Shown here: positions 2,611-56,560 of the stretch, piece by piece | How positions within the stretch are numbered: the first letter of the stretch is position 1 | Layout of the letters: each line of letters opens with the position of its first letter | From: Escherichia coli 042 | Lineage (GTDB): Bacteria; Pseudomonadota; Gammaproteobacteria; Enterobacterales; Enterobacteriaceae | NCBI RefSeq assembly: GCF_000027125.1 | Contig: NC_017626.1 | Direction: 5' to 3' (one strand) | Length of the DNA stretch: 64,000 nucleotides | The notes under the pieces: generated by a model | The model's input: only the letters and a program-made list of their open reading frames with translations | Database searches by the model: none | Told to the model about the DNA's origin: nothing | Made by a program: the position numbers and the translations under genes

Positions 2611-3597
2611 ATGAACAACAGCGCTTTTACTTTCCAGACACTACACCCGGATACCATCATGGATGCTCTATTTGAGCAAGGGATCCGGGTGGATTCCGGT
2701 CTTACCCCGCTTAACAGCTATGAAAACCGTGTCTATCAATTTCAGGACGAAGATCGTCGACGTTTTGTCGTCAAATTTTATCGCCCTGAACGTTGGACAG
2801 CCGATCAAATCCTCGAAGAACATCAATTTGCGTTGCAGTTGGTAAATGATGAAGTTCCGGTCGCAGCACCTGTGGCCTTTAACGGTCAGACTTTATTGAA
2901 TCATCAGGGATTTTATTTCGCTGTTTTTCCAAGCGTCGGTGGTCGCCAGTTCGAAGCTGATAATATCGATCAGATGGAAGCGGTTGGGCGTTATTTAGGG
3001 CGTATGCACCAGACGGGGCGCAAACAGCTTTTTATCCATCGCCCGACCATCGGTCTGAATGAATATCTCATTGAGCCTCGCAAGCTGTTTGAGGACGCTA
3101 CACTGATACCTTCCGGGTTGAAAGCGGCATTTCTGAAAGCGACAGATGAGCTGATCGCCGCCGTTACAGCACACTGGCGGGAAGATTTCACCGTTCTGCG
3201 GCTACATGGAGACTGCCACGCTGGGAATATTCTCTGGCGCGATGGTCCAATGTTTGTTGATCTGGATGATGCACGTAATGGTCCGGCTATTCAGGATTTG
3301 TGGATGTTGCTCAATGGCGATAAAGCCGAGCAGCGGATGCAACTGGAAACTATTATTGAAGCTTATGAAGAATTTAGCGAGTTCGACACCGCTGAAATCG
3401 GACTGATTGAACCTTTACGCGCCATGCGTTTGGTTTATTATCTTGCCTGGCTAATGCGGCGTTGGGCTGATCCCGCGTTCCCGAAAAATTTCCCGTGGTT
3501 AACCGGGGAAGATTACTGGCTGCGACAGACGGCGACTTTTATAGAACAGGCAAAAGTTCTACAAGAACCCCCTTTGCAATTAACACCTATGTATTAA
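2611..3597 (+). CDS. srkA: Stress-response Ser/Thr kinase SrkA (RdoA)
   Basis: 328-aa ORF; kinase-like HGDCHAGNILW and DLDD motifs. Confidence 0.88.
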   Translation: MNNSAFTFQTLHPDTIMDALFEQGIRVDSGLTPLNSYENRVYQFQDEDRRRFVVKFYRPERWTADQILEEHQFALQLVNDEVPVAAPVAFNGQTLLNHQGFYFAVFPSVGGRQFEADNIDQMEAVGRYLGRMHQTGRKQLFIHRPTIGLNEYLIEPRKLFEDATLIPSGLKAAFLKATDELIAAVTAHWREDFTVLRLHGDCHAGNILWRDGPMFVDLDDARNGPAIQDLWMLLNGDKAEQRMQLETIIEAYEEFSEFDTAEIGLIEPLRAMRLVYYLAWLMRRWADPAFPKNFPWLTGEDYWLRQTATFIEQAKVLQEPPLQLTPMY

Positions 3598-3613
3598 TCG
3601 GAGAGAGTAGATC

Positions 3614-4240
3614 ATGAAAAAGATTTGGCTGGCGCTGGCTGGTTTAGTTTTAGCGTTTAGCGCATCGGCGGCGCAGTATGAAGATGGTAAACAGTACACT
3701 ACCCTGGAAAAACCGGTAGCTGGCGCGCCGCAAGTGCTGGAGTTTTTCTCTTTCTTCTGCCCGCACTGCTATCAGTTTGAAGAAGTTCTGCATATTTCTG
3801 ATAACGTGAAGAAAAAACTGCCGGAAGGCGTGAAGATGACTAAATACCACGTCAACTTCATGGGTGGTGACCTGGGCAAAGATCTGACTCAGGCATGGGC
3901 AGTGGCGATGGCACTGGGCGTGGAAGACAAAGTCACTGTTCCGCTGTTTGAAGGCGTACAGAAAACCCAGACCATTCGTTCAGCATCTGATATCCGCGAT
4001 GTATTTATCAACGCAGGTATTAAAGGTGAAGAGTACGACGCGGCGTGGAACAGCTTCGTGGTGAAATCCCTGGTCGCTCAGCAGGAAAAAGCTGCAGCTG
4101 ACGTGCAATTGCGTGGCGTTCCGGCGATGTTTGTTAACGGTAAATATCAGCTGAATCCGCAGGGTATGGATACCAGCAATATGGATGTTTTTGTTCAGCA
4201 GTATGCTGATACGGTGAAATATCTGTCCGAGAAAAAATAA
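3614..4240 (+). CDS. dsbA: Periplasmic thiol:disulfide oxidoreductase DsbA
   Basis: 208-aa ORF, signal peptide, CPHC active site (FFCPHCYQF). Confidence 0.95.
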
Positions 4241-7161: not shown

Positions 7162-9948
7162 ATGGTTCAGATCCCCCAAAATCCACTTATCCTTGTAGAT
7201 GGTTCATCTTATCTTTATCGCGCATATCACGCGTTTCCCCCGCTGACTAACAGCGCAGGCGAGCCGACCGGTGCGATGTATGGTGTCCTCAACATGCTGC
7301 GCAGTCTGATCATGCAATATAAACCGACGCATGCAGCGGTGGTCTTTGACGCCAAGGGAAAAACCTTTCGTGATGAACTGTTTGAACATTACAAATCACA
7401 TCGCCCGCCAATGCCGGACGATCTGCGTGCACAAATCGAACCCTTGCACGCGATGGTTAAAGCGATGGGACTGCCGCTGCTGGCGGTTTCTGGCGTAGAA
7501 GCGGACGACGTTATCGGTACTCTGGCGCGGGAAGCCGAAAAAGCCGGGCGTCCGGTGCTGATCAGCACTGGCGATAAAGATATGGCGCAGCTGGTGACGC
7601 CAAATATTACGCTTATCAATACCATGACGAATACCATCCTCGGACCGGAAGAGGTGGTGAATAAGTACGGCGTGCCGCCAGAACTGATCATCGACTTCCT
7701 GGCGCTGATGGGTGACTCCTCTGATAACATCCCTGGCGTACCGGGCGTCGGTGAAAAAACCGCGCAGGCATTGCTGCAAGGTCTTGGCGGGCTGGATACG
7801 CTGTATGCCGAGCCAGAAAAAATTGCTGGGTTGAGCTTCCGTGGCGCGAAAACAATGGCAGCGAAGCTCGAGCAAAACAAAGAAGTTGCTTATCTCTCAT
7901 ACCAGCTGGCGACGATTAAAACCGACGTTGAACTGGAGCTGACCTGTGAACAACTGGAAGTGCAGCAACCGGCGGCGGAAGAGTTGTTGGGGCTGTTCAA
8001 AAAGTATGAGTTCAAACGCTGGACTGCTGATGTCGAAGCGGGCAAATGGTTACAGGCTAAAGGGGCGAAACCCGCAGCCAGGCCGCAGGAAACCAGTGTT
8101 GCAGACGAAGCGCCAGAAGTGACGGCAACGGTGATTTCTTATGACAACTACGTCACCATCCTTGATGAAGAAACACTGAAAGCGTGGATTGCGAAGCTGG
8201 AAAAAGCGCCGGTATTTGCATTTGATACCGAAACCGACAGCCTCGATAACATCTCTGCCAACCTGGTCGGGCTTTCTTTTGCTATCGAGCCAAGCGTAGC
8301 GGCATATATTCCGGTTGCTCATGATTATCTTGATGCGCCCGATCAAATCTCTCGCGAGCGTGCACTCGAGTTGCTAAAACCGCTGCTGGAAGATGAAAAG
8401 GCGCTGAAGGTCGGGCAAAACCTGAAATACGATCGCGGTATTCTGGCGAATTACGGCATTGAGCTGCGTGGGATTGCGTTTGATACCATGCTGGAGTCCT
8501 ACATTCTCAATAGCGTTGCCGGGCGTCACGATATGGACAGCCTCGCGGAACGTTGGTTGAAGCACAAAACCATCACTTTTGAAGAGATTGCGGGTAAAGG
8601 CAAAAATCAACTGACCTTTAACCAGATTGCCCTCGAAGAGGCCGGACGTTACGCCGCCGAAGATGCGGATGTCACCTTGCAGTTGCATCTGAAAATGTGG
8701 CCGGATCTGCAAAAACACAAAGGGCCGTTGAACGTCTTCGAGAATATCGAAATGCCGCTGGTGCCGGTGCTTTCACGCATTGAACGTAACGGTGTGAAGA
8801 TCGATCCGAAAGTGCTGCACAATCATTCTGAAGAGCTCACTCTTCGTCTGGCTGAGCTGGAAAAGAAAGCGCATGAAATTGCAGGTGAGGAGTTTAACCT
8901 TTCCTCCACCAAGCAGTTGCAAACCATTCTGTTTGAAAAACAGGGAATTAAACCGCTGAAGAAAACGCCGGGTGGCGCGCCGTCAACGTCGGAAGAGGTA
9001 CTGGAAGAACTGGCGCTGGACTATCCGTTGCCAAAAGTGATTCTGGAGTATCGTGGTCTGGCGAAGCTGAAATCGACCTACACCGACAAGCTGCCGCTGA
9101 TGATCAACCCGAAAACCGGGCGTGTACATACCTCTTATCACCAGGCAGTAACTGCAACGGGACGTTTATCGTCAACCGATCCTAACCTGCAAAACATTCC
9201 GGTGCGTAACGAAGAAGGTCGTCGTATCCGCCAGGCGTTTATTGGGCCAGAGGATTATGTGATTGTCTCGGCGGACTACTCGCAGATTGAACTGCGCATT
9301 ATGGCGCATCTCTCGCGTGACAAAGGCTTGCTGACCGCATTCGCGGAAGGAAAAGATATCCACCGGGCTACGGCGGCAGAAGTGTTTGGTTTGCCACTGG
9401 AAACCGTCACCAGCGAGCAACGCCGTAGCGCGAAAGCGATCAACTTTGGTCTGATTTATGGCATGAGTGCTTTCGGTCTGGCGCGGCAATTGAACATTCC
9501 ACGTAAAGAAGCGCAGAAGTACATGGACCTTTACTTCGAACGCTACCCTGGCGTGCTGGAGTATATGGAACGCACCCGTGCTCAGGCGAAAGAGCAGGGC
9601 TACGTTGAAACACTGGACGGACGCCGTCTGTATCTGCCGGATATCAAATCCAGCAATGGTGCTCGTCGTGCAGCGGCTGAACGTGCAGCCATTAACGCGC
9701 CAATGCAGGGAACCGCCGCCGACATTATCAAACGGGCGATGATTGCCGTTGATGCGTGGCTACAGGCTGAGCAACCGCGTGTGCGTATGATCATGCAGGT
9801 ACACGATGAACTGGTATTTGAAGTTCATAAAGATGATGTCGATGCCGTCGCGAAGCAGATTCATCAACTGATGGAAAACTGTACCCGTCTGGATGTGCCG
9901 TTGCTGGTGGAAGTGGGGAGTGGCGAAAACTGGGATCAGGCGCACTAA
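7162..9948 (+). CDS. polA: DNA polymerase I
   Basis: 928-aa ORF; 5'-3' exonuclease, 3'-5' exonuclease and polymerase ([23 protein letters not shown]) motifs. Confidence 0.97.
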
Positions 9949-10095
9949 GATTCGCCTGAACATGCCCTTTTTTCGTAAGTAAGCAACATAAGCTGTCACG
10001 TTTTGTGATGGCTATTAGAAATTCCTATGCAACAACTGAAAAAAAATTACAAAAAGTGCTTTCTGAACTGAACAAAAAAGAGTAAAGTTAGTCGC

Positions 10096-10204
10096 GTAGG
10101 GTACAGAGGTAAGATGTTCTATCTTTCAGACCTTTTACTTCACGTAATCGGATTTGGCTGAATATTTTAGCCGCCCCAGTCAGTAATGACTGGGGCGTTT
10201 TTTA
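10096..10204 (+). ncRNA. spf: Spot 42 sRNA
   Basis: Recognised GTAGGGTACAGAGGTAAGATGTTCTATCTTTCAGACC... ending in hairpin CCCCAGTCAGTAATGACTGGGG plus T-run. Confidence 0.85.
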
Positions 10205-10227
10205 TTGGGCGAAAGAAAAGCTCCGTA

Positions 10228-10312
10228 ATGCCTGATGCGCCCTGTTTATCAGGCCAACGGTAGAAGTGTAATCTATTGAATTTACGGACCGGATACGCCA
10301 CATCCGGCACAA
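10228..10312. repeat. REP/BIME palindromic elements
   Basis: GCCTGATGCGCC...TATCAGGCC and CCGGATACGCCACATCCGGCA units. Confidence 0.7.
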
Positions 10313-10329
10313 GCATTAAGGCAAGAAAA

Positions 10330-10962
10330 TTATTCGCCGTCCTGCGTTTCTTCTACAGGCTGCATCTCGCTAAACCAGGTATCCAGTTTCTGCCGCAGCT
10401 TGTCCACGCCTTGTTTCTTCAGTGAAGAGAACGTTTCAACCTGCACATCACCGTTAAACGCCAGCACCGCTTCACGCACCATATTCAATTGCGCTTTACG
10501 TGCGCCGCTTGCCAGTTTGTCCGCTTTGGTCAGCAGCACCAGCACGGCGATATTGCTGTCTACCGCCCACTCAATCATCTGCTGATCCAAATCTTTCAGC
10601 GGATGGCGAATATCCATTAGCACCACCAGACCTTGCAGGCTCTGACGTTTTTCGAGGTATTCGCCGAGCGCGCGCTGCCATTTGCGCTTCATCTCTTCCG
10701 GGACTTCCGCGTAGCCATAGCCGGGCAAGTCAACCAGACGCTTGCCGTCAGCCACTTCAAACAGGTTGATAAGCTGGGTGCGCCCTGGGGTTTTTGAGGT
10801 CCGCGCCAGGCTTTTCTGGTTAGTCAGCGTGTTCAGCGCGCTGGATTTACCTGCGTTGGAACGGCCTGCAAAAGCCACTTCAATTCCGGTATCGGAAGGT
10901 AAGTGGCGAATATCAGGCGCACTCATCACAAAATGCGTCTGTTGATAATTCAAATTAGTCAA
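10330..10962 (-). CDS. engB: Ribosome-biogenesis GTPase EngB (YihA)
   Basis: 210-aa ORF; G1 motif [10 protein letters not shown]3 DLPGYG, G4 TKADK. Confidence 0.92.
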
Positions 10963-11232
10963 AGCGGTCGTCTCCGTCAGTCAAAGCTTTGCGGCGATTA
11001 TACCTGAACCATAATAAAAGGCGGATTTTTCGGCGTGAGCGTTGTAAGTAAAAGCCATACGCTTTGTGAGACATTGCCGATAGTCTTTATGCGAAATAGC
11101 AGAGAAAATTCTGCGATGCATGTCAAATAAGCTATATAAATCAGTTAATTGCTTTTATATAAAACTCTGAAAATGTGCAAATACTGATGGCGGTTGATTG
11201 TTTGTTTAAAGCAAAGGCGTAAAGTAGCACCC

Positions 11233-11477
11233 ATAGAGCGAGGACGCTAACAGGAACAATGACTCAGGATGAGGGTCAGGAGCGCCAGGAGGCGAAGACA
11301 GAGGATTGTCAGGAAGACAAACGTCCGGAGACGTAATTAAACGGAAATGGAATCAACACGGATTGTTCCGGCTAATGGAAAAACAGGGTGTGTTGGCGGC
11401 CTGCAAGGATTGTAAGACCCGTTAAGGGTTATGAGTCAGGAAAAAAGGCGACAGAGTAATCTGTCGCCTTTTTTCTT
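11233..11477 (+). ncRNA. csrC: CsrC sRNA (CsrA-sequestering)
   Basis: About 245 nt dense in GGA/AGGA motifs (AGGACGC, CAGGATGA, CAGGAGCG, CAGGAAGA...), ending in hairpin GGCGACAGAGTAATCTGTCGCC plus T-run. Confidence 0.8.
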
Positions 11478-45672: not shown

Positions 45673-48600
45673 TTACACCTTTTCCACATTCACAAGGAAG
45701 GACTTAAACTCCGGCGTCTGCGTGTTCGCATCACCAACGAAAGGCGTTAACGTATTGGCAATAAAGCCTTTTTTAGCTACGCCTTCATAGCCCCAGTGAA
45801 TCGGAATACCGATGGTATCGATATCTTTGCCGTTCGCTTTCAGCGTGCGAATACGTTTGGTCACCACCGCTTTGGCTTTGATATAGCCACGGTTGGAGGA
45901 GACTTTCACGGTATCGCCCTGGGCAATGCCAAGTTTATTCGCCAGCGACTCCCCGATTTCCACAAACTGCTCTGGTTGCAAAATCGCGTTCAACAGCGCG
46001 TGTTTGGTCCAGTAGTGGAAGTGCTCGGTCAGACGATAGGTGGTTCCGACATACGGGAACTTATCGGCTTTACCCAACGCTTCGGCGTCGTCTTTAAAGA
46101 TACGCGCAGCCGGGTTCGAGATAACGTTTGGATGCAGCGGGTTAGTTCCCAGCGGCGTTTCAAACGGCTCGTAGTGTTCCGGGAACGGACCTTCCGCCAT
46201 CTTATCAAGGGCAAACAGACGTCCCATGCCTTCCTGCTGCATGATAAACGGCCCTACGCCGCTGCCCGGAGGCGCTGCGCTGTAGTCCGGAATATCCCAG
46301 CCGGTCCACTTAGTGCCGTCCCATTTCAGCAACTGACGCTTCGGATCCCACGGGTTACCCTGCGGATCTGCGGAGGCGCGGTTATACAGGATGCGGCGAT
46401 TAAGCGGCCATGCCCATGCCCAGCCCAGCGTGTTACCGAGGCCAGACGGATCGGCGTTATCACGGCGTGCCATCTGGTTACCTTCTGGCGTCCAGCTACC
46501 GGCGAAAATCCAGCAGCCACAGGAGGTGGTACCGTCATCGCGCAGTTGGGCGAACGAGCTAAGTTGTTGGCCTTTCTTGACGATAACCGCACCGGTTGCC
46601 GGATCGGTAATATCGGCCAGCGCCTTACCGTTGCTCTCCATCGCTACTTCTTCCGACTTCGGCTCATGCGGGATAGCGTAGTTCCAGGTCATGTTCAGCA
46701 CCTGGTCCGGGTTCGCGCCACCCTGTTCGGCATACATCTTGCGCAAGCGCAGGAAGATACCGGAGAGGATCTCGCCATCAGTCAGCGCAATCCCCGGGGC
46801 GTCCGCACCTTTCCAGTGCCACTGCAACCAGCGACCGGAGTTAACGATTGAACCGTTCTCTTCCGCGAAGCAGGTCGATGGCAGACGGAACACTTCGGTC
46901 TGGATCTTCGACGAGTCAACTTCGTTCAGCTCACCGTGGTTCTGCCAGAAGTTAGAGGTTTCAGTGTTCAGCGGGTCGATGGTGACGAGGAACTTCAGTT
47001 TCGACAGACAACCGATCACTTTGTTTTTGTTCGGGAATGAGGCAACAGGGTTAAAGCCCTGGCAGATATAGCCATTGACCTTGCCTTCTTTCATCATCTC
47101 GAAGTATTGCAGGACGTCGTAGCCTTTATCCCACTTCGGCAACCAGTCAAAGCCCCAGCTATTTTCCGCCGTCGCTTTATCACCAAAGAAGGCCTTCATC
47201 ATAGAGACGAAGAATTTCGGGTAGTTGCCCCAGTAGTTTACCTGGCCTTCCAGCAGCGGTTTTGGCGTGTTGGCGGTAAGGTAGGTTTGCAGATCGGTCT
47301 GCTTCTCGCTCGGCAGCGTCATGTAACCCGGCAGGCTCTGCGACAGCAGCCCCAGGTCCGTCAGCCCCTGAATATTGGAGTGACCGCGCAGGGCGTTAAC
47401 GCCGCCGCCTGCCATCCCCATATTGCCGAGCAGCAGCTGGATCATCGCCATCGTACGAATGTTTTGCGCACCAACAGAGTGTTGCGTCCAGCCGAGGGCA
47501 TACAGGAACGAGGCAGTTTTATCGTGAGCACTGGTTTCGGCGATGTATTCGCAGACTTTCAGGAACGCGTCTTTTGGCGTACCACAGATGTTTTCAACCA
47601 CATCTGGCGTGTAGCGGGAAACGTGCTGTTTCAGCAAGTTCCACACGCAGCGCGGATGTTGCAGCGTGGTATCGCGTTTGGCGAAGCCGTTTTCGTCCAG
47701 TTCGTAAGTCCAGGAGGATTTATCGTACTTGCGTTTTTCCGCGTCATAGCCGGTGAACAGGCCATCTTCAAAGCCGTAATCCTCACGCACGATCAGGCTG
47801 GCGTTGGTATAGGCTTCGGTGTATTCGCGGTTGAATTTTTCATTGTTCAGCAGGTACAGCAATACGCCTGACAGGAAAGCAATGTCAGTACCGGAACGAA
47901 TAGGGGCATAGTAGTCAGCCACCGCCGCCGTACGCGTAAAGCGAGGATCGATCACAATCAGCTTCGCGCCATTGTGAATTTTGGCTTCCATCGCCCAGCG
48001 GAATCCGACCGGGTGAGCTTCAGCGGCGTTACCGCCCATCACCACGACGAGGTTGGCGTTCTTGATGTCGACCCAGTGGTTGGTCATCGCACCGCGACCA
48101 AATGTTGGAGCAAGACTTGCTACCGTTGGTCCGTGTCAGACACGCGCCTGGTTGTCGACCGCGAGCATACCCAGCGCGCGGGAGAATTTTTGCGTTAAAT
48201 AGCCGGTTTCGTTACTCGACGCGGAAGCACACAGCATCCCGGTGGAGAGCCAGCGGTTAACGGTCACGCCTTCGGCGTTTTGCGCAATGTAGTTAGCATC
48301 GCGGTCTTCTTTCATCAGTTTGGCGATGCGATCAAACGCCTCTTCCCAACTGATTTGCTGCCATTTATCAGAACCTGGCGCACGGTATTCCGGAAACTTC
48401 AGACGGCTTTCGGAGTGGATGAAATCCACCAGGCCAGCGCCTTTCGGACAAAGTGCACCGCGGTTGACCGGGTGATCCGGATCGCCTTCGATATGGAAGA
48501 TAGATGCTTTGGCGTTTTTTGCTCCGTCACCGAGGCTGTACATCAACAGCCCACAGCCTACGGAACAATAGGTGCAGGTATTACGGGTTTCGCGGGTGCG

Positions 48601-48723
48601 CAGCAGTTTATACTGCCGGGTTTCCGCGAGCGCTACGCTGGGGGCAAAACCCAGTGCCGCTGCCGTGGTGCCTGCCATACCGCCAGCGCAGATCTTAAAG
48701 AACTGCCTTCTGCTGACCTGCAT
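45673..48723 (-). CDS. fdoG: Formate dehydrogenase-O catalytic subunit (selenoprotein; in-frame UGA = Sec)
   Basis: Two same-frame ORFs (45673-48087 and 48136-48723) separated only by an in-frame TGA at 48136-48138; Tat signal MQVSRRQFFK; molybdopterin oxidoreductase motifs. Confidence 0.93.
48085..48135 (-). promoter_or_regulatory. SECIS-like stem-loop immediately 3' of the fdoG UGA
   Basis: Self-complementary mRNA segment CACGGACCAACGGUAGCAAGUCUUGCUCCAACAUUUGGUCGCGGUG directly after the UGA. Confidence 0.6.
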
Positions 48724-48916
48724 GGATTGCTCCTTGTTTCGACATTGTCACGTCCCATTTACATTCGCTTGCTGCGTGTGCAGGGAGTGGGAGTTATTTT
48801 TCTTTGCGGAAGGGGCCGCAAAGGTCCAGAATTGGCTCAATTTCCCTCCATCCAGGAAGGGTTTGTAACAGAATACCATAATGTTGGTGTGTGTGTTCTT
48901 ATCTGGTTAAGAGAAA

Positions 48917-49750
48917 GTGAAAAAAACACAGCAAAAAGAAATCGAAAATGTGACAAATGTCACAGGTGTTCGTCAAGTTGAGTTATGGCGGCGTGATGAT
49001 TTACAACACCCACGGTTAGATGAGGTGGCGGAAGAGGTTCCCGTTGCGCTGGTCTACAACGGCATTTCGCATGTAGTGATGATGGCGTCACCCAAAGACC
49101 TTGAGTACTTTGCGCTCGGTTTTTCGCTTTCCGAGGGGATTATCGAAAGTCCACGCGATATCTTCGGTATGGATGTCGTTCCTTCCTGTAATGGTCTGGA
49201 AGTGCAAATTGAGCTTTCCAGCCGCCGCTTTATGGGGTTGAAGGAGCGTCGCCGGGCACTGGCGGGACGTACGGGATGTGGCGTGTGCGGCGTGGAGCAA
49301 CTTAATGACATCGGAAAACCGGTGCAGCCGCTACCGTTCACCCAGACGTTTGATCTCAACAAACTGGATGATGCATTACGTCATCTCAATGATTTCCAGC
49401 CAGTGGGGCAACTGACCGGTTGTACTCACGCCGCCGCCTGGATGTTGCCATCTGGCGAACTGGTCGGCGGGCATGAAGACGTGGGTCGCCATGTGGCGCT
49501 GGACAAACTGTTAGGCCGCCGGTCACAAGAAGGGGAAAGCTGGCAGCAAGGTGCGGTACTGGTTTCCAGTCGTGCCAGTTATGAAATGGTGCAAAAGTCG
49601 GCGATGTGCGGCGTAGAGATTTTGTTTGCGGTGTCTGCCGCGACCACGCTTGCTGTAGAAGTGGCTGAACGCTGTAATTTGACGCTGGTGGGCTTTTGTA
49701 AACCGGGTCGGGCAACGGTTTATACCCATCCGCAGCGTTTGAGCAATTAA
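48917..49750 (+). CDS. fdhD: Formate dehydrogenase accessory sulfurtransferase FdhD
   Basis: 277-aa [25 protein letters not shown]... Confidence 0.93.
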
Positions 49751-49754
49751 TTAA

Positions 49755-49793
49755 AATAAGTCCTGCGATATATATTAAATTGCAGGACTTATT
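49755..49793 (+). terminator. fdhD intrinsic terminator
   Basis: Hairpin AAGTCCTGCGATATATATTAAATTGCAGGACTT followed by T-rich run. Confidence 0.7.
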
Positions 49794-49799
49794 CATTTC

Positions 49800-50461
49800 G
49801 TGAATTTTATTATTTTATTTATAAACAAAACGCGTGTAGTGGCGTTAACGCCTGCGCTGCAACCTATTGATGGCGTGGCGGTGAGTTATATTGATGCTGC
49901 CGTGGCGTTGGGTAATACCATTAACGAAATGGATAAATATTACACCCAGGAAAATTATAAAGACGATGCGTTTGCGAAAGGGAAAACGCTGCACCAGACA
50001 TTCTTAAAAATCTTGAAGCCTTTGAACCTGTAGCAGAATCTTATCATGCGGCGATTCAGGAAATTAACGATAAGCGCCAGCTTGCGGAATTGAAAAATAT
50101 TGAAGAAAGAGAAGGGGAAACATTCCACTACTACTCTCTGGCAGTCATGATTTCAGCGAAACAAATTAATAACCTGATATCGCAAAATAAGTTTGATACA
50201 GAAGCGGCAATGAAGAAAGTGTCTGAACTGGAAACGCTGGTGGCGCAAGCCAAAGAAGCGGATAAAAGCGGCATGAATTTCTCGTTTATTAATTCGGCAG
50301 GCCAGTATCAACTCGAGGCTAAAAAATACGTTCGCCGCATCAGAGATAAAGTCCTGTACTCTGACTGGGATAAAGAGCAACTTCAGGACGCAAACTCAAT
50401 CTGGATGGCCGAAGACTCATTTCCCGAGAGCATTATGCGAGTACAACGAAATGGTCGATGA
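49800..50461 (+). pseudogene. Frameshifted, probably 5'-truncated gene remnant in the position where I expect yiiG
   Basis: Two overlapping open frames (49800-50033; ~49963-50461) consistent with one ancestral ORF split by a frameshift near 49960-50035; no plausible N-terminus or RBS. Confidence 0.4.
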
Positions 50462-50881
50462 AATATTTCAGTCAATTGTAATCGCGGGGCGGGTTTGTGA
50501 TGAGCGCGGATATGTCACGAAGTCGTGACAATATAAAGCAGAGTGAAGGATAAATTTTGTGAATAAAGTATCATTATTTAATGATTTTGTGAATGTTTAA
50601 ATGTCTCAGATAATTTGTTTAAGCGTTATTTATATTTGTGGCTTATGAGTCAGCGTGAATCATATCTAATATTTTTTACGATATTTAGTTAAAAACGGCA
50701 CTATTGTTATATTCCTCACGTTCCAGGAAATCAGCGGATTTACTCATATTATATGGCGGGATACTATCCATCGGCCTGCTGAAGTTGGATTAAAAATTCG
50801 AAAGTGCACACCTTATATTTCTCTATATACGTATTCCTTTTGGAAAGCGTAGGGTCTCTTTTATTTCAGGGAACGTAAATA

Positions 50882-52276
50882 ATGAAAAAATCGACATTAT
50901 CTTTAGCCATCGGTTTATTATTGGCATGTAGTACCGGATTGGCAAAAACACAGCATTTAACGCTGGAACAACGCATGGCATTGCTGGAAGAACGCCTGGA
51001 AGCGGCAGAAATGCGGGCAGCAAAAGCAGAGAGCCAGGTTAAACAGCTGCAGACACAACAAGCCGCTGAGATCCGCGAAATTAAGGCTGCCCAGGGCAAT
51101 ACGCCGGTAAATGGACAGGCAACGGCGGAATCTGCAAAGAAAAATTCCACCTCACCTAATCTTTTGCTCTCAGGTTATGGCGATTTAAAAATCTACGGCG
51201 ACGTAGAATTTAATATGGATGCGGAAAGTAATCATGGCCTGCTGGCAATGACCAACGCTGATGTGAATAGCGATCCCACTAATGAACAGTGGAATCTCAA
51301 TGGTCGTATTCTGTTAGGTTTTGATGGTATGCGAAAACTGGATAATGGTTATTTCGCCGGGTTCTCCGCACAACCGCTGGGGGACATGCACGGTTCAGTA
51401 AATATCGATGATGCGGTATTCTTCTTTGGCAAAGAAAACGACTGGAAGGTCAAAGTAGGCCGTTTTGAAGCCTACGATATGTTCCCGCTGAATCAGGATA
51501 CCTTTGTTGAACATTCCGGTAATACTGCGAACGATCTTTATGACGATGGCAGCGGTTATATCTATATGATGAAAGAGGGCCGCGGGCGCTCTAACGCTGG
51601 CGGTAATTTCCTCGTCAGCAAACAACTTGATAACTGGTATTTTGAATTAAACACGTTACTTGAAGACGGAACATCTTTATATAATGACGGTAATTATCAT
51701 GGACGCGATATGGAGCAGCAGAAAAATGTTGCTTATCTGCGTCCAGTAATTGCCTGGTCGCCGACGGAAGAATTCACCGTTTCCGCAGCGATGGAAGCGA
51801 ACGTAGTAAATAATGCTTATGGTTATACCGATAGCAAGGGTAATTTTGTCGATCAGTCCGATCGTACCGGCTATGGTATGAGCATGACCTGGAATGGCCT
51901 GAAAACGGATCCGGAAAATGGCGTCGTGGTTAATCTTAATACCGCCTATTTAGATGCTAATAATGAGAAAGATTTCACTGCCGGGATTAACGCGCTGTGG
52001 AAACGTTTCGAGCTGGGTTATATCTACGCGCACAATAAGATTGATGAATTCAGCGGTGTAGTTTGTGATAACGACTGCTGGATTGATGATGAAGGGACGT
52101 ACACCATTCACACCATTCATGCGTCTTATCAGTTCGCTAATGTGATGGATATGGAGAACTTTAATATTTACCTCGGGACGTATTACTCCATTCTGGATAG
52201 CGACGGTGATAAAAAACACGGTGATGATACTGATGACCGTTACGGGGCACGCGTTCGCTTTAAATACTTCTTCTGA
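50882..52276 (+). CDS. Outer-membrane beta-barrel, carbohydrate-selective porin-like (OprB/ScrY-type) with N-terminal coiled coil
   Basis: 464-aa ORF; signal peptide MKKSTLSLAIGLLLACSTGLA; heptad-like LEQRMALLEERLEAAEMRAAKAESQVKQLQ; C-terminal ...VRFKYFF. Confidence 0.65.
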   Translation: MKKSTLSLAIGLLLACSTGLAKTQHLTLEQRMALLEERLEAAEMRAAKAESQVKQLQTQQAAEIREIKAAQGNTPVNGQATAESAKKNSTSPNLLLSGYGDLKIYGDVEFNMDAESNHGLLAMTNADVNSDPTNEQWNLNGRILLGFDGMRKLDNGYFAGFSAQPLGDMHGSVNIDDAVFFFGKENDWKVKVGRFEAYDMFPLNQDTFVEHSGNTANDLYDDGSGYIYMMKEGRGRSNAGGNFLVSKQLDNWYFELNTLLEDGTSLYNDGNYHGRDMEQQKNVAYLRPVIAWSPTEEFTVSAAMEANVVNNAYGYTDSKGNFVDQSDRTGYGMSMTWNGLKTDPENGVVVNLNTAYLDANNEKDFTAGINALWKRFELGYIYAHNKIDEFSGVVCDNDCWIDDEGTYTIHTIHASYQFANVMDMENFNIYLGTYYSILDSDGDKKHGDDTDDRYGARVRFKYFF

Positions 52277-52316
52277 TGAAGGCGCGGTGCTGGATATTTT
52301 CCGGCACCGCAACTCA

Positions 52317-52631
52317 TTAAGGCAGGTAAAACACTTCTTGCAGCTCGCTACTGACTGGGCTGTTATCCGGGTTAGCTGGCATAACGTCGGTCATATATTT
52401 CCACCAACGTTGGCAAACATCAGTACTGGCTACCGCATTCCACCGTTCTTCAGATTCAATCTCTACCGTGGCAAACAGCAGATTACGCGCTTTGTCGAGG
52501 TAAATGGCGTAGTTATGCGCACCGTGAGATTTCAACACTGCTTCCAGTTCCGGCCAGATTGGATTATGCCGACGCTGATACTCTTCGTGGGCGTCGGGGT
52601 TAACCTGCATGACAAAGGCTTTGCGGATCAT
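52317..52631 (-). CDS. rhaM: L-rhamnose mutarotase
   Basis: 104-aa [25 protein letters not shown]... Confidence 0.92.
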
Positions 52632-52640
52632 GTTTGCTCC

Positions 52641-53465
52641 TTACAGCGCCAGCGCACTGGCGAGTGGTGTAACGCCGAAACGCTGGCCGAGCGCTATCAG
52701 CTCTTCACGGCTGATGGTCTGTTTCATGCCGCCCATCGAATAAACCTTCACTAATACTTGTGCTGATTTTTCTGCGGTGTCGATTAAACCGAATGTTTCA
52801 TCCAGTGTCGGACCGCTGCCGAAGACGCCGTGGAAGGGCCACAACACCAGCGAATGTTTTTGCATTTCCTGTGCGGTCGCCTGGCCGATTTCGTCGGTGC
52901 CGGGCACCATCCACGGCAGAATGCCAACGCCATCCGGGAACACTACCAGACACTCAGTGCTGCCTTCCCACAGTTGGCGAGTGAAGACCGCGGTGTCGTT
53001 TTCCAGTACGTAGGTAAGGGCGATCAGGTTGGTGGCATGGCAGTGCATGATCACCCGATCTTTACCGTTGGTGGCTTTAATGCGTTCGCAATGAGAGAGG
53101 AAGTGCGCCGGAAGTTCAGAGGTTGGAACGGCTTCGTGAGTTAGCCCCCAGAGAATATGGTAGCCCGCGCCGTCGCTGTCGACTTTTACGACGCCTAAGT
53201 TAGCCGCAGGATCAAGCTGGACGTTGCGGAAGAATTTGCCGGAGCCGGTGACAATAAACGGTGTATTTGCCAGTAAAGGCATGGGCTGGCTGAGCGGGAT
53301 ATAGCGCGGTTGTTGGTGGAAGTTGTCGTGATACGGTGCGATATCGGCGTCATCCAGGCGCAGTGTCAGGTTACCACCATTGCGCTCGTCCCAGCCTTTC
53401 AGCCAGGCGTCGGTGGTGGCTTTGATCATTCCCTGGACAAACCAGGACTGGGTAATGTTTTGCAT
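52641..53465 (-). CDS. rhaD: Rhamnulose-1-phosphate aldolase
   Basis: 274-aa product from [20 protein letters not shown]-track start at 53555 runs into the upstream REP and is judged too long. Confidence 0.92.
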
Positions 53466-53494
53466 GTTCTGTGTTCCTGTAAATTCGGTGTTGT

Positions 53495-53545
53495 CGGATG
53501 CACGACCCGTAGGCCGGATAAGGCGCTCGCGCCGCATCCGGCAGT
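53495..53545. repeat. REP palindromic element between rhaA and rhaD
   Basis: GTAGGCCGGATAAGGCGCTCGCGCCGCATCCGGC. Confidence 0.7.
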
Positions 53546-53547
53546 GT

Positions 53548-56560
<3,013 letters not shown>

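Follow-up and report, generated by a model that had tools for sequence, protein, structure and literature searches.

The lac promoter lacP1 is a class I, cAMP–CRP-dependent promoter, in which the CRP site is centred at −61.5. In the mRNA of ompA, which encodes an outer-membrane protein, stabilising stem-loops in the 5′ untranslated region (5′ UTR) lie ahead of a ribosome-binding region that is U-rich and single-stranded. The leader of the chitoporin gene chiP (ybfM) is silenced by the small RNA (sRNA) ChiX, and silencing by H-NS is experimentally established for bgl, a locus that combines, in the bgl operon and bglH, a sugar-specific porin, AT-rich upstream DNA and an adjoining cryptic PTS operon. 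Porins of the RafY family are encoded on plasmids of the pRSD2 type, in which rafY lies downstream of rafR-rafA-rafB-rafD and in the same orientation. In Klebsiella pneumoniae, the RafY-family porin GlyP belongs to a permease/hydrolase/glycoporin operon controlled by glyR, within a carbohydrate regulon (bioRxiv 10.64898/2026.03.29.715108).

Here we analyse the DNA upstream of a chromosomal RafY-type porin gene in Escherichia coli 042, using a 64-kb stretch of its genome (hereafter referred to as the window). The local gene order is fdoG, fdhD, a decayed yiiG, an AT-rich region and the porin gene, followed by rhaM-rhaD-rhaA-rhaB on the opposite strand. The AT-rich region (positions 50462–50881) exactly fills the gap that separates the open reading frame (ORF) remaining of yiiG (50090–50461, stop codon included) from the ATG of the porin gene. 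It is a previously unannotated, ordinary regulatory region of a RafY-type porin gene, and exemplifies known kinds of element (Table 1). The explanation that we favour, with a probability of about 0.6, is that the gap is the remnant of a divergent frvA/glycoporin control region, with a lacP1-like, activator-dependent σ70 promoter for the porin gene and a conserved stem-loop in the leader of its mRNA.

Table 1 Features in and around the region upstream of the glycoporin gene (window coordinates).
Feature	Position	Strand	Remarks
yiiG (DUF3829 lipoprotein) pseudogene remnant	49839–50461	+	Borders the region on the left
Junction of the ~4.8-kb deletion	50458–50463		ATGA microhomology at both parental sites
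Orphaned frvA −10 element, TTACAATT	50474–50481	−	Conserved columns; predicted function
Inverted repeat ATATGTC-N10-GACAATAT	50509–50533	−	Just upstream of the frvA core promoter; TGTCA...GACATAT invariant
Site of the 38-bp deletion	50559–50560		Specific to the frv-less allele; flanking repeats ATAAATTTTG / ATAAATCTTG
AT-rich inter-promoter spacer	50560–50704		24.8% GC; left side varies between E. coli alleles
Conserved 16-mer TGTTATATTCCTCACG (TGTTA-N6-TCACG)	50705–50720	+	CRP-like; proposed site for an activator of porin transcription
Predicted −35 element TTTACT of the distal porin promoter	50739–50744	+	18 nt after the 16-mer
Predicted −10 element TACTAT	50762–50767	+	17-bp spacer; conserved GCCTG follows the predicted start
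Alternative proximal σ70-like promoter TTAAAA-18-TATATT	50790–50819	+	Consensus scan, 9/12; predicted start ~50826
Leader stem-loop UACGUAUUCC-UUUU-GGAAAGCGUA	50828–50851	+	−9.1 kcal/mol; ends 30 nt before the ATG
U-rich block and Shine–Dalgarno sequence CTCTTTTATTTCAGGGAACGTAAATA	50856–50881	+	Consensus TCTTTATTTCAAGGAAAG-AATA, up to the ATG
RafY-family glycoporin gene	50882–52276	+	464 aa; gene controlled by the region

Among the described systems, the nearest models, by analogy, would be lacP1 for the porin promoter and an ompA-type structured leader for the mRNA. Like lacP1, the predicted porin promoter consists of a 16-bp CRP-type site, an interval of 17–18 nt, a TTTAC(A/T) −35 element, a spacer of 17–18 bp and a weak −10 element, and the distance from the site centre to the −10 element is that of the lac sequence. 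The right half-site of lacP1, GCTCAC, is also the form found in the commonest version of the porin motif (TGTTATCTCGCTCACG), with CCTCAC in E. coli; unlike lacP1, the porin promoter has TGTTA instead of TGTGA as its left half-site, and no repressor operator is evident. The porin leader shares with the ompA 5′ UTR its order of elements ahead of an outer-membrane protein gene, and in both, conservation of structure exceeds that of sequence. However, the two have no sequence homology, and the porin hairpin would be 5′-terminal, as in ompA, only if the proximal start discussed below were used. For the U-rich/Shine–Dalgarno block, chiP offers a plausible model, as a case in which the leader and ribosome-binding site of a sugar porin are the point of post-transcriptional control, although the porin leader shows no homology to that of chiP and no sRNA partner was identified. 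The locus resembles bgl in its sugar porin, AT-rich upstream DNA and, ancestrally, an adjoining PTS operon; unlike bgl, it has no RAT/terminator antitermination elements, and the case for H-NS is one of composition only. Plasmid rafY encodes a protein of the same family and is ~81% identical in nucleotide sequence over the coding region, but its position in the raf gene cluster is unlike that of the chromosomal gene, and its upstream DNA has neither a comparable hairpin nor the 16-mer, since the BLAST matches begin, on the 5′ side, within the coding region. The GlyP arrangement, an operon under a LacI-family repressor, also differs from the E. coli porin promoter; Klebsiella orthologues of the porin gene follow MFS, GH32 and β-helix genes, and at one such locus (L020) the upstream genes are co-directional.

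The porin matches the Pfam family PF16966 (Porin_8) with E = 3.1 × 10−154, its residues 104–464 corresponding to profile positions 1–372 of 372, and RefSeq labels the gene 'carbohydrate porin'. The O157 Sakai counterpart is ECs_4827 in the Sakai annotation, for which the name rafY2 has been used in one paper (PMC4809568). Orthologues with at least 67% identity adjoin rhaM in many genera of Enterobacteriaceae, and this synteny argues against a recent foreign insertion. Their upstream neighbours vary, and include frvABXR, azlCD-like genes with an XRE/cupin regulator, and others.

In E. coli O157:H7 and strain Ch1, the DNA of the gap is a 477-bp divergent intergenic region between the porin gene and frvA, which opens the frvABXR PTS operon. 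Alignment of the window to locus L002 paired window positions 49839–50461 with L002 positions 3587–4209, and 50461–52699 with 9001–11277. The matches thus end 19 nt before the yiiG stop codon and resume 18 nt before the frvA ATG, from which we infer that ~4.8 kb was lost in this lineage, comprising the 3′-terminal 19 nt of yiiG, the genes frvR-frvX-frvB-frvA and the 18-nt stretch ahead of the frvA start codon, within which the frvA Shine–Dalgarno sequence lay. The remaining part of yiiG matches the O157 and K-12 gene at 95–97%; it has itself lost ~470 bp, including the start codon, between GTGGCGTT repeats, and RefSeq describes the equivalent yiiG as frameshifted, with its N terminus missing. 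A further deletion removed a 38-bp block that is present in O157, Ch1 and K-12 and missing from the window and ST131, and with it TGTGn-N6-nCACA, the CRP-like site that is conserved in the frvA promoter. The 420 bp are the remains of a divergent frvA/glycoporin control region after the loss of frvABXR in this lineage.

The frv-less arrangement is shared by 1166 of 5426 complete E. coli genomes, and ST131 has it as well. Beyond these 1166, ~1380 genomes carry the region at 80–95% identity, which brings the total with the region to 2546 of the 5426; the two of the ~1380 that were examined, O157:H7 and Ch1, have both frv and the porin gene. K-12 has kept frv and is missing the porin gene and most of the region. 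The region occurs at a median of one place per genome, and this single-copy state rules out an origin from a repeat or mobile element.

An earlier note on this DNA had described the gap as a leader of the porin gene, ~420 bp of very AT-rich DNA with multiple A/T tracts, and had taken it for a likely silenced or tightly regulated promoter region, with binding of the H-NS type and possibly a small regulatory element. The composition was described correctly: the GC content is 34.3%, against 50.0% for the whole window, and 18 of the A/T runs are 6 nt or longer. The GC content is uneven along the gap, at 41.8% in 50462–50559, 24.8% in the spacer and 36.1% in 50774–50881. Segments of 420 nt that are as AT-rich or more so make up 0.56% of those in the window, and comparable AT-richness is found at six other spots in it, so that the composition is typical of promoter-bearing intergenic DNA in E. 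coli rather than exceptional.

This composition bears on the proposal that the promoter is bound and silenced by H-NS, with AT-rich, curved DNA nucleating filaments that would keep the porin off until an anti-silencer acts. The low GC content (34% overall and 25% over 145 bp) is what such silencing would call for, and the porin gene, which only some E. coli carry, lies below the window in GC content, at 44.9%. A weak hint comes from K-12, in which frvA was found among mostly prophage and cryptic genes in an rpoZ (ω-subunit) ChIP–chip study (PMC5811629). However, the high-affinity H-NS nucleation motif TCGATAAATT has just two matches with two mismatches, one at 50455–50464, which straddles the left boundary, and one at 50547–50556, and this is hardly above the rate in the window (95 such matches in 64 kb, or ~0.6 per 420 bp). 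Moreover, the locus is ancestral and syntenic by rhaM in many genera rather than recently imported, and the six other spots are equally AT-rich. A search of the accessible literature found no reports of H-NS occupancy or of hns mutants for the porin locus, nor regulatory data linking frv, RafY/rafY2 or ECs4827 to H-NS or CRP, and it yielded no mapped transcription start, expression measurements or binding data for the porin gene. We regard silencing by H-NS as conceivable, with the balance somewhat against it. It could coexist with the divergent-promoter explanation that we favour: H-NS binding is possible and compatible with that explanation, especially over 50560–50704, and this spacer may be the best candidate substrate for nucleoid proteins.

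To characterize the left part of the gap, we aligned 12 regions upstream of frvA from at least six genera. On the frvA strand, the invariant columns comprise the CRP-like TGTGn-N6-nCACA, TGTCA...GACATAT, CTCA, the −10 element and GGAG, followed by the ATG. In the −10 hexamer of these 12 regions, the first two bases and the last (TA...T) are invariant, TACAAT, the E. coli sequence, is the commonest form, and the element stands at a fixed distance (~27–30 nt) from the GGAG Shine–Dalgarno sequence of frvA. The window has kept the −10 element, the CTCATCAC block and the inverted repeat, whereas the Shine–Dalgarno sequence, the gene and the CRP-like site are gone; AATTGTAA is invariant in five E. 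coli alleles, including that of K-12. The left ~100 bp of the gap is homologous to the frvA-proximal half of the divergent region and retains promoter-like elements that have no gene to drive. FrvR is a regulator with a helix-turn-helix (HTH) and an EIIA domain, and the inverted repeat is a candidate FrvR operator, which would have no operon left to control. The frvA half of the region is more variable between E. coli alleles (73–89% identity), a pattern that fits relaxed constraint. Further right, ATTTTGTGAAT occurs twice in or near the spacer (50554–50564 and 50584–50594), and on the right side of the spacer a TTTTTAYGATATTT-GTT block is conserved in Escherichia and Citrobacter.

Decay of this kind over 50462–50600, with an orphaned promoter, the 38-bp deletion and the divergence between alleles, is also what would be seen if the AT-richness and the motifs were neutral leftovers without function beyond a minimal promoter. 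For 50705–50881, this is contradicted by the order and spacing of elements across many genera and by covariation in the leader stem, and as an account of the region we give neutrality almost no weight.

The right ~180 bp is nearly invariant in E. coli, and many genera have its blocks, at fixed spacing, ahead of the orthologous porin gene. When 80 loci encoding relatives of the porin were searched by BLAST with the region, a block at ~50655–50743 proved to be conserved in Citrobacter. In an exact search, 32 of 36 orthologous loci had TGTTA-N6-TCAC at 177–242 nt before the ATG, whereas its background frequency in all of the fetched DNA was 0.016 per kb; the four exceptions, from Klebsiella and Raoultella, have no such motif within 400 nt upstream. 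The half-sites of this 16-mer are invariant, while the central N6 varies (TATTCC, GATTCC, TATCCC, TCTTGC, TCTCGC, CCTCGC and others). We also considered TGTTATATT as an extended −10 element and rejected it, as substitutions between genera break TATATT and keep TGTTA...TCAC.

Exactly 18 nt of non-conserved sequence separate the 16-mer from TTTAC in Escherichia, most Citrobacter, Kluyvera, Pseudocitrobacter, two of three Enterobacter loci and Superficieibacter. In C. braakii and C. amalonaticus S646, the position of TTTAC differs by about one base, and a clear TTTAC is absent at some loci (L016, L028, L031–L033 and L036). Farther downstream, the TA.TA and GCCTG columns were invariant or nearly so in one alignment, with TAGTGT and GCCTG as the Kluyvera equivalents. 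From this geometry, transcription of the porin gene is predicted to start at ~50774, which would give a leader of ~108 nt and place the centre of the 16-mer at −61.5.

In E. coli, TGTTATATTCCTCACG differs from TGTGA-N6-TCACA by two mismatches, agreeing at 8 of 10 half-site positions. The window contains 29 matches to the CRP pattern at this two-mismatch level, against 26.5 expected, and in the absence of enrichment the assignment to CRP is drawn from conservation and geometry only. The left half-site, TGTTA, is without the second G of TGTGA in every genus, and CRP normally contacts this G; TGTTA is thus odd for CRP, and another factor could bind. The 16-mer might accordingly serve a different protein as its operator, for example a dedicated, sugar-responsive regulator whose gene lies elsewhere, in which case the porin would respond to a specific inducer only. 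The invariance of TGTTA and CTCACG in a barely palindromic site, and the unexceptional statistics of the degenerate CRP pattern, are compatible with such a factor. However, the 16-mer is kept despite differing flanks (the frv operon, azlCD with an XRE regulator, or neither), its spacing to the −35 and −10 elements equals that of a class I CRP promoter, and its right half in the form GCTCAC is that of the lac CRP site. Its retention in genera without an adjacent frv operon argues for a global rather than a frv-specific factor, and we consider a dedicated regulator rather unlikely.

A second question is which core promoter is used. In promoter prediction, which the earlier note had named as a check, the consensus scan returned four sites against 2.5 expected, with the proximal TTAAAA-18-TATATT as the best consensus match in the region, and it missed the distal TTTACT/TACTAT, which matches 8 of 12 consensus positions. 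Were the proximal sequence the working promoter, the leader would be ~56 nt long and would begin with the stem-loop, which would then be a 5′-terminal stabiliser of the ompA hairpin 1 type, and the 16-mer would act from a distance or for a second promoter. In Escherichia, Citrobacter and Kluyvera, the hairpin is indeed preceded, at ~7–15 nt, by a TATAT-like element, and the proximal promoter is retained by plasmid copies that start at window position 50721. On the other hand, neither Kluyvera nor Citrobacter conserves the −35 region of this promoter, chance −10 matches are common in A/T-rich DNA, and the 16-mer, −35 and −10 of the distal promoter, with their fixed spacing, are much better conserved. 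We therefore lean against the proximal promoter and retain the distal, activator-dependent one as the preferred reading.

These results confirm that the gap is a regulatory region of the porin gene, as the earlier note had held, since conserved elements are found upstream of orthologous porin genes. The term leader applies to a part of it: only ~108 nt, or ~56 nt from the proximal promoter, would be transcribed, and the remainder is the orphaned frvA promoter and the inter-promoter spacer. The conserved elements also agree with tight regulation, and the mechanism to which they point is an activator-dependent (CRP-type) promoter with a structured leader.

The 70 nt before the ATG contain, across 34 loci, a hairpin whose stem differs in sequence between genera. 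When sequences were folded one by one, 25 of 30 non-redundant loci had a hairpin of −5.9 to −16 kcal/mol that ends 24–32 nt before the ATG, compared with 5% of shuffled sequences. A covariance model of the hairpin, built from Escherichia and Citrobacter and run over 1.2 Mb of loci, found essentially porin leaders only, with one exception at E = 0.86. In the alignment fitted to this model, 90.4% of cells pair, against 67.5% after shuffling (none of 500 shuffles reached the observed value), and double changes occur at all 10 stem pairs; when the pairing partner is slid by 1–3 columns, pairing falls to 28–57%. RNAalifold recovered the same helix from plain MAFFT alignments, independently in Kluyvera and in Citrobacter/Escherichia; a first run, on a mixed-genus MAFFT alignment, had missed it because the stems were out of register. 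The leader stem-loop is a conserved cis-acting RNA structure, in which pairing is kept by compensatory substitutions at a fixed position. Frequent G–U pairs place this structure in the sense-strand RNA rather than in the DNA, and the hairpin most likely acts on the mRNA, through its stability, its processing or the organization of the ribosome-binding site. Beyond the hairpin, the leader as a whole folds no more stably than shuffled sequences (z = −0.36 and −1.2).

The U-rich/Shine–Dalgarno block that follows is nearly invariant across Escherichia, Citrobacter, Kluyvera and other genera. The predicted accessibility of the Shine–Dalgarno sequence, by contrast, ranges from 0.01 to 0.99 among orthologues, with unpaired probabilities of 0.15–0.26 in Escherichia and two Citrobacter and 0.7–0.99 in most others, and this difference between genera means that no single translational mechanism is supported. 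For the same reason, a conserved switch based on pairing between the Shine–Dalgarno sequence and the hairpin's 5′ arm is not supported; this pairing appears in the 133-nt minimum free energy (MFE) structure of E. coli but is not conserved. Pairing with the sRNA MicA was dropped as a chance match, the complementarity being confined to the E. coli variant CAGGGA, where other genera have CAAGGA.

A transcriptional role for the hairpin, as an attenuator or terminator or as the 3′ end of a small leader-derived RNA, would make read-through the determinant of porin level. A T-run directly follows the hairpin in four loci (L028, L032, L033 and L036), and the Klebsiella hairpin lies between co-directional genes, as would suit an attenuator. 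In E. coli and most genera, however, 7–8 non-U nucleotides stand between the stem and the U-run; in E. coli these are the 7 nt GGGTCTC ahead of TTTTATTT, so that the hairpin is not a canonical terminator there. The terminator scan returned no terminator on the + strand, and no conserved anti-terminator pairing was found. Attenuation thus appears quite improbable, and action on the mRNA remains the preferred role of the stem-loop.

A more far-reaching view of the same elements is that the stem-loop and the U-rich/Shine–Dalgarno block together (~50828–50881) constitute an undescribed cis-regulatory RNA, absent from Rfam and characteristic of chromosomal RafY-type leaders in the Enterobacteriaceae, which works as a post-transcriptional switch. 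Such an element might be the target of an sRNA, Hfq or CsrA, or might tune the access of ribosomes or decay by RNase E; through it, the permeability of the outer membrane to oligosaccharides would be set independently of the promoter. We hold this view to be doubtful. A scan of 48500–53000 against Rfam 15 at E ≤ 1 gave no match in 50462–50881; the sole match in the scanned interval was a sub-threshold FdoG thermometer at 48694–48892.

Small ORFs in the region do not appear to encode proteins. On the minus strand, two overlap the start of the porin gene, at 50823–51023 (66 aa) and 50866–51150 (94 aa), and both had been called spurious in the earlier note. Other alleles bear this out: the 94-aa ORF is already interrupted by stop codons in other E. 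coli alleles and in those of Kluyvera, and the 66-aa ORF has stop codons in two of three Kluyvera alleles. A third minus-strand ORF, of 28 aa (50685–50771), spans the conserved block; its ATG is not kept in Citrobacter, and its conservation lacks codon periodicity.

Together, the elements suggest the following mechanism. An activator of the cAMP–CRP type, bound at the 16-mer, would drive transcription from the weak −35 and −10 elements of the distal promoter and so produce the ~108-nt leader. Given a promoter that depends on a CRP-type activator, the porin would probably be made when preferred sugars are absent. In the mRNA, the stem-loop 30 nt before the ATG and the U-rich/Shine–Dalgarno block after it would exert their effect, and the very AT-rich middle would be a spacer between the two promoters that may also bind nucleoid proteins. 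The region would work like two divergent sugar promoters under catabolite control.

Nothing in the locus should surprise a specialist, and mild novelty attaches only to the stem-loop that leaders share across the family and that is absent from Rfam. The locus cleanly illustrates reciprocal gene loss, as well as the decay of a promoter once its operon has been deleted. An unannotated gap becomes a testable map, with a leader hairpin that is conserved and two divergent promoters, probably sugar-responsive, of which one has lost its genes. The glycoporin gene is carried by about half of the sequenced E. coli, K-12 being without it, and RafY-type porins affect the uptake of oligosaccharides. In Klebsiella, upregulation of a RafY-type porin reportedly gave a porin-mutant, carbapenem-resistant strain a competitive fitness advantage (bioRxiv 10.64898/2026.03.29.715108), which makes the switch that controls the E. 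coli glycoporin of practical interest.

Alignment of window 49800-52300 with four E. coli loci (L002, which is O157, L003, L004 and L005) revealed three arrangements across E. coli genomes. Both the frvABXR phosphotransferase operon and the RafY-family porin gene are present in O157:H7 and Ch1; frv is deleted and the porin stands alone in this window and in ST131, an arrangement found in 1166 of 5426 genomes; and the porin is deleted and frv stands alone in K-12. This distribution looks like the outcome of reciprocal loss from an ancestor that carried both. Upstream of the AT-rich porin control region, yiiG is a pseudogene that contains a frameshift. Its start is gone, together with ~470 bp deleted between GTGGCGTT repeats, and the frv deletion also took its final 19 nt.

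The control region has a third allele in E. coli E69, which is more divergent (79% identity). The leader of this allele has 14 extra nt and its hairpin is weaker (-7.4 kcal/mol); neither frv nor yiiG was detected within 7 kb upstream in E69.

In the window, the AT-rich spacer contains two copies of the direct repeat ATTTTGTGAAT, spaced 30 bp apart. The first copy overlaps a CRP-like pattern with two mismatches, which is not conserved in the O157 allele. A GC content of 35% or less, comparable to that of the region, also occurs in six other 420-nt segments of the window.

Coordinates of the features discussed in the text
Feature	Sequence	Position
Upstream of fdoG, FdoG-1 5′ UTR thermometer match	window	48694-48892 (-)
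Palindrome TGTGACAAATGTCACA	window	48949-48964
yiiG pseudogene	window	49800-50461
ATTTTGTGAAT copies	window	50554-50564; 50584-50594
CRP-like pattern, 2 mismatches	window	50558-50573
rhaB-rhaS CRP-pattern matches	window	56382-56397; 56417-56432
Other low-GC 420-nt segments	window	~4200; ~6700; ~22070; ~39330; ~39980; ~41870
Third allele, E. coli E69	L007	6655-7000
Porin segment on IncI-gamma/K1 plasmid CP057400.1 (= window 50721-53555)	L086	4474-7745
Klebsiella michiganensis porin cluster	L020	2329-8380
Citrobacter insertion	L009	5023-6654
Citrobacter insertion	L019	5032-6664

Two matches to the CRP pattern lie in the divergent region between rhaB and rhaS. They were anticipated from what is known of the rha regulon and provided an informal positive control for the pattern search. 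About 30 nt into the annotated reading frame of fdhD, and facing the fdoG-fdhD divergent region, is a perfect palindrome, TGTGACAAATGTCACA, that matches the CRP core pattern exactly. The FdoG-1 thermometer match (RF02778) is sub-threshold: its score is 32 bits (E = 2.9e-5), and the gathering score of the family is 50.

The chromosomal segment beginning at 50721 is duplicated, with 99.2% identity, on several conjugative plasmids. The plasmid segment spans the porin, rhaM and rhaD and starts just 3′ of the 16-mer proposed as a CRP-like activator site; the predicted core promoters and the leader hairpin are retained, and the CRP-like site is absent. Genes for an MFS transporter and a GH32 hydrolase lie upstream of it.

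Citrobacter carries an insertion of azlC/azlD-like genes and a gene for an XRE-HTH/cupin regulator, with frvA (or fdhD) on one side and the porin promoter block, which is retained, downstream. In Klebsiella michiganensis, the genes that precede the orthologous porin gene encode a sugar transporter (MFS_2), a GH32 enzyme and a beta-helix protein; this last protein matches the Pfam inulin-fructotransferase beta-helix repeat below threshold. Taken with the fructose-type Frv phosphotransferase system of E. coli, these Klebsiella neighbours hint at a role for the porin in the uptake of fructans or fructo-oligosaccharides.
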